Positions 5,621 through 61,650 of a stretch of DNA of 64,000 nt are shown in pieces (within the stretch, counting starts at the first letter, position 1; every line of letters starts with the position of its first letter). The notes under the pieces were generated by a model. The model had not been told where the DNA came from. It saw only the letters and a list, made by a program, of their open reading frames with translations, and searched no databases. The translations under genes and the position numbers were made by a program. This DNA is from Eledone cirrhosa. Lineage: Eukaryota. Location: the NCBI GenBank assembly GCA_964016885.1, contig OZ024750.1, positions 48,670,001 through 48,734,000 of the forward strand, in the 5' to 3' direction.

Positions 5621-6334
5621 GTATTTGGGGGAATATGGAGGGGGAGTGAGAGAAGGAGGACGGAGAGATAGGGAGAAAGAGAAGGGAGCAAGTTTCTGCC
5701 GATCAAAGTTCCCTAACAAGGTATTAAATAATACTGTGTATATTTTTCAAACCATTTTGAAGAATAAAGAATTCGGTGGGATTTGATAATACAAAGAAAG
5801 CTTTCATTTGGATGTCAAACATCATTTAACAAAGTATCTTATATAATATTATAATGGAATATATTTTTGATGAATATATAAATTTAAATCAAATGGTTTT
5901 GTATTGTAGACTGAAGAGCCGTTTGATTTCAAAAGGAGTCAACTCAATGAACATTTTTGTTTTGTGCAAAACTATAAAACAATAATTAATTTAGTATGAA
6001 GCCTAATCACATTCCACGCTGGGCACTTCATTGCTATTGTCTCTGTATATTAAACCACTATATGCAAACACACACACATACACGCGCGCGCACACACGCA
6101 CGCGCACACACTCACATGCACATATATATATATATATATAAACATATATATATATATATATATATATATATATATATATATATATATGATTATAATATAT
6201 ATATATATGAATATAGACATAGAATATTCGAAAATATTCTGTATGTTTATAATAAACATTTTGAAGACCTAATCGCTATAGAATAGAATACGTCACGTAT
6301 TACAATTAGATTCTCGATAAAAGCAAGGGAAGTA

Positions 6335-6373
6335 AGTCTACGCGTTTCATTCTTGTTAGAATTCATCAGGACT
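6335..6373 (-). ncRNA. Minimal type I hammerhead ribozyme
   Basis: Minus strand: AGTC-CTGATGA-ATTC TAACAA GAAT-GAAA-CGCG-TA|GACT. Confidence 0.9.
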
Positions 6374-6645
6374 ACATATCCAGTGCTTTTATCGAGAATG
6401 ACACAGCTAGAGACTTATAGAATACTTAGCTGTGTACAGGAACTGGTTTGAAAGAGCGGTTGCCGGTCCGGCAGAAATTAGAAATTGGAATAAATGCTCT
6501 GAAATAGCGATATATATGTGAATATAGACATAGAATATTCGAAAATATTCTGTATGTTTATAATAAACATTTTGAAGACCTAATCGCTATAGAATAGAAT
6601 ACGTCACGTATTACAATTAGATTCTCGATAAAAGCAAGGGAAGTA

Positions 6646-6684
6646 AGTCTACGCGTTTCATTCTTGTTAGAATTCATCAGGACT
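6646..6684 (-). ncRNA. Minimal type I hammerhead ribozyme
   Basis: Identical to 6335-6373, one 311-bp period away. Confidence 0.9.
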
Positions 6685-7135
6685 ACATATCCAGTGCTTT
6701 TATCGAGAATGACACAGCTAGAGACTTATAGAATACTTAGCTGTGTACAGGAACTGGTTTGAAAGAGCGGTTGCCGGTCCGGCAGAAATTAGAAATTGGA
6801 ATAAATGCTCTGAAATAGCGATATATATGTGAATATAGACATAGAATATTCGAAAATATTCTGTATGTTTATAATAAACATTTTGAAGACCTAATCGCTA
6901 TAGAATAGAATACGTCACGTATTACAATTAGATTCTCGATGTTTATTATAAACATACAGAATATTTTCGAATATTCTATGTCTATATTCACATATATATC
7001 GCTATTTCAGAGCATTTATTCCAATTTCTAATTTCTGCCGGACCGGCAACCGCTCTTTCAAACCAGTTCCTGTACACAGCTAAGTATTCTATAAGTCTCT
7101 AGCTGTGTCATTCTCGATAAAAGCACTGGATATGT

Positions 7136-7174
7136 AGTCCTGATGAATTCTAACAAGAATGAAACGCGTAGACT
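7136..7174 (+). ncRNA. Minimal type I hammerhead ribozyme
   Basis: AGTC-CTGATGA-ATTC TAACAA GAAT-GAAA-CGCG-TA|GACT, enclosed by the perfect helix ATTCTCGATAAAAGCA/TGCTTTTATCGAGAAT. Confidence 0.92.
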
Positions 7175-58212: not shown

Positions 58213-58945
58213 TAAAAAACGAAAAATCAGTGATGCATCTAGGCTCAGTTTATTGCGTGTTACAATTGTTTCGCCGGCAGGTAGCTCGAGACATGATCAC
58301 TGTATGGATCTGGGTGATTCTACCACTGCAGGTTCCTTCGGCGCAAATTTTCTCACTGCGGTGTTATCGTAAAAAAAAACACCTTCAAAAAATATCTTCC
58401 ACTCTTGTCATGCCATTGGCTGTTGTTATTATATGTCATCTTAAGTTCTGGTCATTATTTACTGCTACACGGGTCATCAGCCATTTTCCGTCCGACACAT
58501 TTCGATGGAGCCCTGCTGGGTTCGGTATCTCACACGTCTGTTCACACTCCAGAGTATGTACCCACATATACACACACACACACACACGCAGGCACACACA
58601 CATGCATGCATACACATATGTACGCATACATGTGTAGGCACACATACCCTCATGCACATATATACACGCATGAGGCAGTAAATAGTGACCAGAACTTAAG
58701 ATGACGTAGACTAACAACAGCCAATGGCATGACAAGAGTGGAAGATGTTTTTTTAATGTATTTTTTTATGATAACACCCCAGTGAGAAAACATGCTCCGA
58801 AGGAACTGCCCGTGTCCGAAGGAACCTGCAGCTGTAGAATCAATCAGATCCATACAGTGATCATGTCTCGAGCTACCTGCCGGCGAAACAATTGTAACAG
58901 GCAATAAACTGAGTCCAGATGCATTACTGATTTTTCGTTTTTTTT
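58213..58945. mobile_element. Inverted repeat (arms about 58213-58467 and 58674-58945) with CCGA-core HHR-like motifs
   Basis: Right arm: CGTGT-CCGAAGGA-ACCTGCAG..CTGCCGGC-GAAA-CAATTG-TA|ACAGG. The left arm gives TA|ACACG. Confidence 0.75.
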
Positions 58946-59217
58946 TATATTATATATATATATATATATATATATATATATATATATATATATATATATA
59001 TATATATATATATATATATATATATATATATATATATATATATATATATATGTATATATATATAAATATATATATACATACACACATATATATACATATG
59101 AGTTGTATCAAACATTAAAAGTAATGTGCGGTTCGTTTGTAAACAAACAGCCCGCTTTGAAGCTGTACTCTGCCAGTGACTGATCGTTACCTATTTGTTC
59201 AACACTGGCTTTGAGGA

Positions 59218-59260
59218 ACTATCAACAAGTTTCTGGGTTATTATCCTTCATCAGGACTGT
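59218..59260 (-). ncRNA. Hammerhead-like motif with upstream octamer (59296-59303)
   Basis: Minus strand: ACAGTC-CTGATGA-AGGATAATAACCCA-GAAA-CTTG-TT|GATAGT. Confidence 0.6.
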
Positions 59261-61090
59261 ATACCTCTGCCAGGTAACATCGGGTGAGTAGCCTCATTTG
59301 CATACCGAGCGAATTATAGCACGCCTAGCCGATTAATATATAAACTGAAAAGTAAGCTCTTTTTCAAAATGATATGGAAGCTTAAGTTGAACAAGACTCC
59401 ATAATCTTTTGGTTTGGTCCAACATTTGGGATGTACCCCCAGACAGAGGCGGCTCAGGCATTTGAAGCTACTGTCTGAGTAAGACTGTCAAGATATTCAG
59501 AGGGGGGACGTAAATAACCAATAGTTGGGCTGATTTCTTTGGTGCTTGTCTACACCTAAATACGAGAACATTCCTCAAAGTATATATTTAGATCCCTGCC
59601 TCCTGAGGGTCCAGCTGGATCACCCCCACATCCATCTTTTATCACTATTAATCTCTAAATGCATCCCAGATCCACCCTAAGCTCGTTGTAAGATTGATGC
59701 TTTGCTTCTCTATATGGATTCTCTCGGCCATACCAAATATTTATTAGGGAACCAGCCACGTATCATGGATACTTAACGTGAGATTCACGACGGTGTTAGA
59801 ACCACCCTCTGAGCTGGTTAGATCCCCACTTTCCAGGAAAATGACTCACACCTCAGGACCACGCTGGAATCATTGACTGGCTAATATAATCAGGTGAAGT
59901 ATTTCACGTGTAACATATTCGTGAATATTAATACTTGTATTAGCTCTAAGCGAAACAGTTTATCTTTAGATAATCATACTAAAAATTCCCCCATTTCTTC
60001 CATACATATGCAAATCTGATACGGTTTTTAGTATATTTTATATCTGTATATGATTATCAATCTTGTGATACATGTTAGGCGTTGGTATAGTCTAATATTG
60101 GTGCCATTCGCACTTCCCACCATTTTGTTCTTGTTTGTTTTGTTTTGTTATCTGTCTTTTTTTTATAATTCTGTACTGTTTACATTAAGATTGTGATGTA
60201 TTCCATGTTTACTTAATGACAATCTATCTCCTTAGATTTTTCTTTAATTTACTTTATTCTTCGTTATTCTATTTCATCATTTATATAAGTCAACTAATTG
60301 TCAAATAATGTGTAATGTATTAAATATTGGCGAGACTGGTTATTATATTATATTATCACTACTGCTACTACTTCTACGATCCCTGGGCGGAGTGCCACTC
60401 TCATCCACATAAGTTATCGTTGATGCAGCCTTGACTGTTATTTTGGTTGTTATAAACAAGTACATGACCCAGCAACGGAATGCCAAGGTTAATTACTACT
60501 GATAAATCATCACTGAATAATTTAGTTGCCGACTCATTGAACGAAATCTCAGACCATGGCACCACAAAGAATTCGCAATAACTTGATGATTTAAGTGTGA
60601 AACTACTACTGACCCATAGATACTGGCCTTCTATATGACTTGTGGTGATGCTAGGAAGCTATTCTAAGTCATATGTCAGCGTTGCTTCGAGAAAGTTTCA
60701 GCACGAGACTTGAATCGAAAAAAGCAGTAGAATTTGTTATTTCTTTTTCATGTTTTTTTTCTCTTCAACATTTATCTGTCTGATTAAGTTATAACTGTTG
60801 CATAACGTAGGTACTATATATAACAGGTATTATGGCGGCATGAAGTAAATTCTAACGTGTCTATTTGCGCGTCATAATTATAACTATTCTCCGGAGTATA
60901 CACACCTACTTTTATACATCGTTGGGTGTTATATACTGCATACAATAGTGTCGGTGACAAACAAACATACTTTGCTACACACACACACACACACACACAC
61001 ACACATATATATATATATATATATATATATATATAAACGGCATAAATGAAACGAAATTCATTTCTCTCTCTTAGTATGGCTGTTTCTTAA

Positions 61091-61650
61091 ATATAAGTAT
61101 GTATACGTACATACATATATGTATACAGACGTAAAGTAGTATGTATATATATACATACATGCACACCTATATATATGTACATATGGATTTAGCAAATATT
61201 TATTATAATGCTCGGTGTGTTTGTAAACAAACATCCCGAATTAAGCCGTACAGTGTCTAGCAACCATCGCTGCTCTTTTGTTCAACACTAACAATGGAAC
61301 GATGTACTAGTTTCAAGCTTATTAGCTATCGTCAGCACCGTATATGCATAAGGAAAGTATATACTTTCAGACGTTCAATCATCTTGCAGGAAGGTATACG
61401 GTGCTGACGATAGCTAATAAGCTTGAAACTAGTACGGCATTCCTTTGTTCGGGATGTTTGTTTACAAACACACCGAGCATTATAATAAATGTTCGGTAAA
61501 TCCATACGTATATATATATATATATATGTGTGCATGTATGTATATATATATATACATACTACTGTATGTCTGTATACATACTACTGTATGTCTGTATACA
61601 TACTACTGTCTGTCTGTATACATATATGTATGTACGTATACATACTTATA
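61091..61650. mobile_element. Fold-back element with divergent CUAG-loop HHRs (61299-61341 minus, 61398-61434 plus)
   Basis: ACGGTG-CTGACGA-TAGCT AATA AGCTT-GAAA-CTAG-TA|CATCGT; homologous to 50780-51170. Confidence 0.85.

Follow-up and report, generated by a model that had tools for sequence, protein, structure and literature searches.

How do copies of one sequence come to lie head-to-head between TA microsatellites, as they do repeatedly in a 64,000-nucleotide (nt) stretch of the Eledone cirrhosa genome (contig OZ024750.1, positions 48,670,001 to 48,734,000; hereafter, the window, meaning the whole stretch analyzed), and is one primed DNA copy sufficient to make such a locus or are two required? 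Our data show that the two arms of these loci, which are almost certainly Penelope-type insertions, always end at different sites, and we consider it fairly probable that they are generated by two-primer synthesis from two fixed starts.

Outward-facing arms and their two end sites

A preliminary description of the window had pointed to 13 loci at which a minus-strand left arm and a plus-strand right arm carry their 3' ends outward. Self-BLAST of the window, by which inverted arms were located, recovered such arms at all 13, each pair lying head-to-head and pointing outward, with 88-100% identity over the aligned parts. In total, the window (69% A+T) hosts 22 two-armed loci from 12 families, and the arms overlap in 19 of them. 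Tandems were also seen in families B, I, and J, such that both inverted 5'-truncated copies and partial tandems, i.e., the structures known from Penelope elements, are represented. Since family D lacks a hammerhead ribozyme motif, its polarity was assigned from the shared tail motif described below. All counts omit positions 48099-50233, which repeat 45964-48098 exactly and whose loci were dropped as duplicates, and the catalogue of element ends is incomplete. This exact 2135-bp tandem duplication, with all TA-tract lengths identical and breakpoints inside TA tracts, is either an assembly error or a very recent event.

Alignment of the left arm of each locus against its right arm revealed that the ends are unequal in 22 of 22 cases: one arm stops at a first site (site 1), and the other runs 39-115 nt further, to a second (site 2). 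The intervening stretch corresponds to the Penelope "tail", which may lie on either side of the locus, and sequence beyond both sites enters (TA)n. Seventeen of the 22 loci belong to families with further copies that end at the same two sites; the other five represent single-locus families, in which the offset alone is visible. Under an independent choice of site by each arm, no more than half of the loci would be mixed, giving a P of at most about 2e-7 for the 22 loci and 8e-6 for the 17. No equal-ended palindrome was found among the family-assigned loci of the window, though such palindromes are easier to detect than mixed ones. Label-free clustering of the 40-mers flanking TA likewise yielded two end-clusters for family A (five and three ends) and for family D (five and four ends). 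Moreover, hammerhead-to-TA distances in families A and C each fall into two classes (about 95-99 or 187-202 nt), because one arm stops at site 1 and the other continues to site 2.

The outer ends had been described as lying at or near TA microsatellites, and with the tails included this is the case: 24 of the 26 ends of the original loci abut (TA)n, and the remaining two (47592 on the left, 61650 on the right) adjoin degraded TA runs. The coordinates first given, however, fall 56-95 nt short of the tract at 8 of the 13 loci (8686, 18517, 41317, 46318, 47367, 47931, 58213, and 61091), because the tail of the longer arm had been left out. An old inverted pair at 1675-2153 (71% identity, with a hammerhead-like core on the right arm) also points outward, but without (TA)n.

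The loci and their single-armed relatives are as follows.
6209-6940, minus: family B arm without tail, 732 nt long and made up of about 2.4 tandem 311-nt units, with hammerhead cores at 6369 and 6680
6939-7339, plus: family B tailed arm with 39-nt tail (7301-7339) and hammerhead core at 7140; identity to the left arm, 100%
8598-9435, minus: family A tailed arm, 90-nt tail (8598-8687), hammerhead at 8784, followed by a spacer (9436-9583)
9584-10203, plus: family A tail-less arm, hammerhead at 10108 with one core change
13524-14417: family A two-armed locus absent from the preliminary description; tailed minus arm (13524-14336), 77-nt tail-less plus arm (14341-14417)
18234-18608: family C; tail-less minus arm, tailed plus arm with 97-nt tail (18512-18608)
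19192-19404: family D, no hammerhead; tailed minus arm with 82-nt tail, tail-less plus arm
22764-22941: family D; tailed plus arm with 79-nt tail, tail-less minus arm extending about 17 nt beyond it in the 5' direction
24354-24556: family A, non-palindromic; minus arm (24354-24381) comprising the last 28 nt of the tail, tail-less plus arm (24382-24556) with hammerhead at 24458
32383-32576: family E, non-palindromic; tail-less minus arm with hammerhead at 32475, plus arm (32544-32576) comprising the tail end only
32603-32691: family D, non-palindromic; minus arm comprising the tail end only, tail-less plus arm (32634-32691)
33337-33530: family D; tail-less minus arm, tailed plus arm, site 1 at about 33450-33452, site 2 at 33529-33530
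33612-34015: family N; tailed minus arm with tail of about 50 nt, tail-less plus arm (33961-34015)
7403-7561 and 57476-57646: solo relatives of family N, tailed and tail-less, respectively
35915-36107: family D; tail-less minus arm, tailed plus arm with 83-nt tail
38380-39070: family J; tail-less minus arm of 83 nt, long plus arm whose end lies 115 nt beyond
39173-39454: family E; tailed minus arm (39173-39297; tail of about 103 nt plus 22 nt of body), tail-less plus arm (39298-39454)
41247-41421: family F; tailed minus arm with 71-nt tail, tail-less plus arm with degenerate hammerhead at 41362
42405-42671 and 42698 to about 42960, minus: two single-armed tailed copies of family A chained via one TA tract
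45962-46124, plus: family E single-armed tail-less copy, hammerhead at 46027
46252-46563: family G; tailed minus arm with 68-nt tail, tail-less plus arm
47085-47462: family C; tail-less minus arm with hammerhead at 47180, tailed plus arm
47592-48024: family C; tail-less minus arm, tailed plus arm with 93-nt tail, hammerheads at 47697 and 47826
50231-51173: family I; tail-less minus arm, plus arm a partial tandem with hammerhead at 50828 and 60-nt tail
57647-58052: family O; short minus arm, plus arm that extends about 105 nt beyond it, to (TA)n
58124-58950: family H; tailed minus arm with 90-nt tail, tail-less plus arm; a solo tail-less relative lies at 23075-23245
61035-61650: family I; tailed minus arm with tail of about 57-61 nt and hammerhead at 61335, tail-less plus arm reaching further 5'

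A search for a second arm at 42405, 42698, and 59065 found none. Within 47592-47931, the inner 38 nt of the arms diverge far more than the outer 130 nt, which may reflect either two templates or later arm-to-arm conversion. At 42197-42314, two short opposed arms between TA tracts match 41161-41220 and 19056-19119, and this is possibly another non-palindromic two-arm insertion.

The two ends are not confined to the window. Four sequencing runs were mapped onto the family D stretch 33389-33530, including two restriction site-associated DNA (RAD) runs, X21 and X22, from two other individuals. Loose ends with a (TA)n consensus occur at 33452 in 2810 (X21) and 2309 (X22) reads (agreement of 0.83 and 0.86, respectively) and at 33529 in 6614 and 7615 reads, and the contigs of run X1 hold family D ends at 33452 (n = 47) and 33529 (n = 101). 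Since the same (TA)n-flanked ends recur in reads of other samples, the two ends of family D are genome-wide. The family takes about 0.16% of the RAD reads, and four contigs of run X4, labelled as another organism, carry it as well.

The reads say little on polarity, because the probable restriction cut at AATT destroys the centres of the D palindromes (five joints are listed without direction). A pile-up of read ends at 33399 (7094 and 7189 reads) was considered as the RNA 5' end, but it lies on AATT and is most likely the library restriction cut. The palindrome centres differ in all five D copies. The arms of this family start near AGTCC (seven of nine within about 4 nt), a sequence that also follows the presumed cut site of family F, and such a start suggests a defined RNA 5' end. 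That family D begins at a hammerhead cut site is unproven; the contigs upstream are heterogeneous (agreement of 0.49) and contain no hammerhead core.

TA tracts, hammerheads, and the tail

To what extent the TA tracts are targets can be judged from the hammerhead positions. We scanned the window for minimal type I hammerheads (core, GAAA, palindromic stem III, cut triplet, and stem I; score of at least 11), which gave 22 predicted motifs as compared to 0-1 in six shuffles. A (TA)n tract lies within 210 nt downstream of 16 of the 18 non-duplicated hammerheads, against a background of 33% (P = 1.6e-6), whereas upstream the figure is 6 of 18 (P = 0.58). The proposal that the tracts are landing pads is supported within the window, where enrichment exceeds background. 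The following repeat, resembling a short interspersed nuclear element (SINE), served as a control.
391-535, 2731-4058, 13241-13368, 20048-20634, 34322-34476, 36308-36494, and 56250-56953: SINE-like control repeat, 12 copies, some of them tandem or inverted
None of its 12 copies abuts (TA)n, the nearest tract being 73 nt off.

Insertions also chain through the tracts of earlier insertions (32383/32603, 42405/42698, and 47085/47592). The preliminary description had also raised the possibility that the tracts are products of the elements. In the tandem units of families B and I, the sequence past site 2 is not (TA)n, so in these families the RNA does not template the tract. There are 111 TA-tract clusters outside the duplicated block, and 36 of the 64 clusters of at least 30 nt touch no end in our incomplete catalogue. 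Tracts at catalogued ends are longer (median of 44 versus 29 nt, P = 0.004), a difference that could stem from longer targets as well as from growth. At 14 of 17 site-1 junctions, 1-5 nt are common to the element and the TA tract, and the two readable site-2 junctions share 0 and 3 nt; in DNA this rich in A+T, the sharing is weak evidence, compatible with minimal primer pairing. The preliminary description had further assigned a role to the self-complementarity of the (TA)n target, but this is not needed, given that inverted copies in Adineta are described with ordinary 8-10 bp target duplications (PMC3846280). Any such duplication at our loci would be concealed within (TA)n. The D insertion at 35915, together with its TA tracts, lies between the halves of an older 40-nt inverted pair (35795-35837 and 36157-36221).

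A predicted hammerhead with palindromic stem III near the 3' end passes the scan in families A, B, C, E, and I and is degenerate in F, G, and H; only in family B does each unit of a tandem (311 nt) carry one. The outward ends of the 13 original loci had been called ribozyme 3' ends. This label suits the five loci that pass the scan in at least one arm (6209, 8686, 47081, 47592, and 61091) and, in a degenerate form recognized by eye, four more (18231, 41317, 46318, and 58213), but not the four family D loci (19195, 22762, 33336, and 35914). Indeed, no hammerhead motif was detected in the five D copies scanned, and family D is tied to the Penelope group by its tail, tail motif, and geometry only. 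Rfam produced no match in the window at gathering score and missed the hammerheads, its sub-threshold matches being mostly microRNA models on microsatellites. Hammerheads of other families were found at 17933-17985 and at 38264-38300, the latter with a classical-looking stem II and a GUC cut site 80 nt before a TA tract.

The tails share a motif, TRTTGAGTRCT, located 42-78 nt before the end and usually with ACTC upstream. Allowing two mismatches, it is present in 14 of 19 tails (that of family E being partial in this set), as compared to 5% of random 85-mers; it was found in families A, C, D, E, F, and H and, in the same search, was absent from B, G, I, and J. When one mismatch is allowed, the window contains 13 non-duplicated matches, every one of them 42-78 nt ahead of (TA)n and free of TA in the 80 nt upstream. 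An ACTC/GAGT hairpin appears in the lowest-energy fold of 9 of the 19 tails, with one compensatory-looking case in family G, and is plausible on the basis of these predicted folds. The motif may act as a protein-binding signal. A repeat at 53960-54392 and 61717-62123 ends in (TA)n and contains a tail-motif-like sequence 53 nt before its end.

A probable two-primer origin and its alternatives

Loci at which the arms do not overlap (24354, 32383, and 32603) are informative as to how two arms arise, since in each of them one arm consists of the tail end alone. The tail-only arm of 24354 matches the tail end of 42405 at 28 of 28 positions and its body arm is 99% identical to 42405; with tail and body both matching this one relative, the two arms stem from one subfamily. 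The tail-only arms of 32383 and 32603 match the tails of 39173 and 22941, respectively, each at 31 of 31 positions. In addition, the tail-less arm outreaches the tailed one in the 5' direction by 15 nt or more at eight loci (that of family B, 22764, 24354, 32383, 32603, 39173, 41247, and 61035), and the reverse holds at about as many. Elsewhere, a 60-nt piece of the family C tail stands alone between TA runs (55412-55471), beginning right after the motif position.

The insertions are almost certainly 5'-truncated, mostly non-coding Penelope-like retroelements in (TA)n. In the origin that we postulate for the two-armed loci, a reverse transcriptase (RT)-endonuclease would nick both strands of a TA tract, and each nick would prime a cDNA on sense RNA within a single event, one cDNA starting at site 2 (the tail end) and the other at the internal site 1, 39-115 nt upstream. 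End-joining would then link the two truncated cDNAs at their 5' ends. Two long arms would give a palindrome, a site-2 cDNA stalling after about 30 nt would leave an inversion without a palindrome, and a second arm of near-zero length would leave an apparently solo copy; hence, two independently truncated cDNAs, one per site, would account for all of the observed arm patterns. This agrees with a study of the Poseidon element of the green anole lizard in vitro, in which both strands of an AT-rich target are nicked and extended, with RT initiating at two internal positions, one at each boundary of the tail (PMC11167929). The preliminary description had invoked twin priming, and of that idea the use of two primers is favored, but the starts are fixed and family-specific, and most arms overlap, contrary to the L1 model.

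Several observations weigh against this two-primer account. Tail-only arms (n = 3) could be later deletions of palindromes, and a fourth candidate (23246-23272) was not confirmed, as it does not match the tail of its family. Strict pairing of one tailed with one tail-less arm is left unexplained, because the described in vitro results include no strand-specific choice of start (PMC11167929). A strict one-plus-one rule predicts a 1:1 ratio of ends, unlike the reads, which hold about 2.4 (X21) and 3.2 (X22) tailed ends per tail-less end of family D after subtraction of a subfamily with a non-aligning body; solo tailed copies, poorer alignment of the 53-nt arms, or a few deep RAD loci may account for this excess. 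Moreover, an opposite-strand joint of 33452 and 33529 (18 reads from one start, and four reads from four starts) unites two 3' ends and is an apparent inward case. Together with the tailed excess, it counts against an exceptionless rule. Arm pairs are mostly 3-12% divergent, and in 5 of the 10 palindromes compared (8598, 13524, 19192, 33337, and 35915) another locus matches an arm at least as closely as the partner arm does; given this, the origin of each palindrome from one RNA molecule is not shown by the sequences. The tail motif was built from the same tails, with only two out-of-sample matches (46671 and 45008), and its raw count (15) is near that of shuffles (mean of 7.1, maximum of 13). 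The tail hairpin is no more stable than shuffles (z of -0.7 and -1.9). Lastly, a sequence link between the coding remnants described below and families A-J is not shown.

Among the alternatives, antisense self-priming fares best, though we deem it rather unlikely. Here, an antisense RNA would self-prime a hairpin, whose arms the endonuclease would resolve at site 1 and site 2. We regard it as the main rival because staggered endonuclease cuts could also give all arm patterns: a single staggered cut yields one tailed and one tail-less end, either arm may be longer, and a fold-back inside the tail produces a tail-only arm. Head-to-head copies in Adineta have been explained in this manner (PMC3846280), with the tail put down to endonuclease resolution (PMC3846280, PMC8557442). 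On the other hand, the mechanism requires that an RNA arm be turned into DNA and that fold-back points vary from copy to copy, with a junction homology of about 0-2 nt where readable, and later in vitro work describes sense RNA, nick-primed synthesis on both strands, and starts that are the tail ends (PMC11167929).

It is very unlikely that a single primer suffices, i.e., that the first cDNA folds back and is self-copied into the second arm, as the preliminary description had also suggested. In its favor, 19 of the 22 loci have overlapping arms and are palindromes, and the family B locus could be reached via the internal tandem unit. A copy of a tail-less cDNA, however, cannot hold a tail, nor can a copy outreach its template in the 5' direction, yet the tail-less arm does so at eight loci, and at three the arms do not overlap at all. 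Together, the tail-only arms and the further-5' tail-less arms exclude simple fold-back unless later deletion is assumed. Flanking DNA beyond the TA tract is also not duplicated at two-armed loci, apart from the pre-existing 40-nt inverted pair around 35915.

Two separate insertions into one TA tract, or later rearrangement, would be in keeping with the chaining of insertions via shared tracts and with arm identities that are sometimes no higher within than between loci. We find this explanation barely probable, as no TA lies between the arms, and partner arms are always of the same family (at least 12 being present) and always of different end type. Still less can be said for DNA transposons resembling miniature inverted-repeat transposable elements (MITEs), or for master palindromes copied whole, which would be highly improbable. 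TA is the target of Tc1/mariner transposons, short inverted arms stand beside TA, and family D is small, abundant, and free of hammerheads; but the ends are offset by 39-115 nt in all 22 loci rather than symmetric, the tailed arm is on either side, D centres differ in five copies, other families have hammerheads and tandem units, and tail-only copies exist. Finally, assembly artefacts (fold-back chimeras) have a negligible probability. In their favor, identity reaches 100% between the arms of 6209-7339 and over part of 50231-51173, an exact second copy of 45964-48098 is present, and reads confirm no palindrome centre of the window; but most arm pairs differ by 3-12%, and chimeras would not end at family-fixed sites seen in reads of other samples.

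Returning to two-primer synthesis, we raise a stronger version only tentatively, and hold it to be doubtful: every Penelope-type insertion here could be an obligatory two-primer event, with a dimeric RT-endonuclease on the tail signal sending out a cDNA on each side. The roughly 30-nt tail-only arms and the 60-nt piece at 55412 might then be cDNAs stalled at the protein footprint, and solo copies might have a near-empty second arm. If true, one TA tract would become two with each insertion, such that the elements multiply their own targets, and obligatory two-primer events would explain the inverted pseudo-long terminal repeat (pseudo-LTR) of Penelope elements.

Coding remnants and known Penelope-like systems

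The fold-back families themselves have no open reading frame (ORF), but the window hosts two decayed remnants that could indicate the type of enzyme.
11396-12323, plus: decayed Penelope-type ORF remnant, RT thumb followed by a C-terminal GIY-YIG domain (tblastn with relatives, E down to 6e-22)
62869-63309, plus: decayed C-terminal GIY-YIG endonuclease with an upstream Cys cluster (62875-62930), Neptune/Nematis-like

The second remnant has 1775 relatives at E of 0.001 or less and adjoins an inverted copy (62528-62875) of its own downstream region, which runs off the window; the repeat at 61717-62123 may be the outer end of an inverted arm next to it. In one relative, P0014, an RT-like region precedes the endonuclease and the catalytic motif was recognized by eye, whereas Pfam found nothing; the order of domains, as judged from this sequence, is that of Neptune/Nematis. 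Pfam reported no GIY-YIG domain in the remnants or in six relatives, a search for homologous proteins among longer proteins gave no match, and an Atlas search with 11480-11761 gave no usable one. A linker in Neptune/Nematis has been proposed to direct (TA)n targeting (PMC8557442), and the enzyme of such elements may act in trans on the non-coding families. The inverted copies, one-ended tails, and (TA)n targeting support the Penelope-type origin put forward in the preliminary description, and the decayed RT and GIY-YIG remnants fit it.

The outward fold-back geometry is itself a known Penelope signature and is not new. Penelope/Poseidon, Neptune, Nematis, Naiad, and Hydra are endonuclease-bearing elements with an inverted pseudo-LTR and a tail, and an inverted 5'-truncated copy, a 30-40-bp tail at one end, and a (TA)n bias have been published (PMC8557442, PMC3846280), the origin of the inverted copy still being described as open (PMC8557442), with antisense self-priming as the prevailing proposal. 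Minimal type I hammerheads are known from Penelope-like elements (PMC4209133), as are retrozymes as non-autonomous derivatives (PMC7229834; bioRxiv 10.64898/2026.07.22.740005). Our loci share with endonuclease-bearing Penelope-like elements the head-to-head 5'-truncated copy, partial tandems, one-ended tail, 3' hammerheads, and non-autonomous derivatives, and with the clades having a Cys-rich linker the (TA)n bias and, in the remnant, the Cys cluster. They differ from the elements as described in those sources in that the tails are 39-115 nt long (only family B is near the published length), tail-only inverted arms and a cross-family tail motif are present, and family D has arms starting at a near-fixed point and no hammerhead. 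The hammerheads, predicted from sequence, resemble those of Penelope elements and non-LTR retrozymes in their type I core and short palindromic stem III, as does the 311-nt tandem unit of family B, but most copies here are single truncated arms rather than tandem arrays.

As regards the in vitro Poseidon work, the results described do not tie the two starts to inverted copies and include neither strand preference nor primer-template homology (PMC11167929), as against the 1-5 nt shared with TA at 14 of 17 site-1 junctions here. Very short, 5'-truncated new insertions into microsatellites have also been reported (PMC9977147), and an octopus repeat annotation lists active Penelope families, with hammerheads and palindromes unmentioned in the portion available (PMC13282606).

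L1 twin priming, dating from the 2001 work of Ostertag and Kazazian, reportedly involves two nicks that prime two cDNAs on one RNA to give an inverted segment, the second primer being said to act at variable internal sites and the segments not to overlap. The three tail-only loci resemble it; in our families, by contrast, the second start is fixed per family and the arms usually overlap, non-overlap being limited to 3 of 22 loci.

The literature searched holds no two-primer account of inverted Penelope copies, although Arkhipova 2006 and Evgen'ev and Arkhipova 2005 lie outside it and may contain one; tail-only arms, further-5' tail-less arms, and a cross-family tail motif were not found there either. 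What we add is genomic evidence favoring two primers at fixed starts over fold-back, along with long tails that share a motif. The tailed/tail-less pairing and the tail-only arms tie the arrangement in the genome to the two starts of the in vitro work and offer a sharp test for the existing reconstituted system. Furthermore, palindromes of this kind can easily be mistaken for MITEs or microRNA hairpins when a TA-rich genome is annotated.

A 358-codon open frame at 43961-45037 (minus) also has a weak RT match (Pfam RVT_1, E = 0.005) and appears by eye to be LINE-like, and an element with the tail motif (44919-45130) abuts it.

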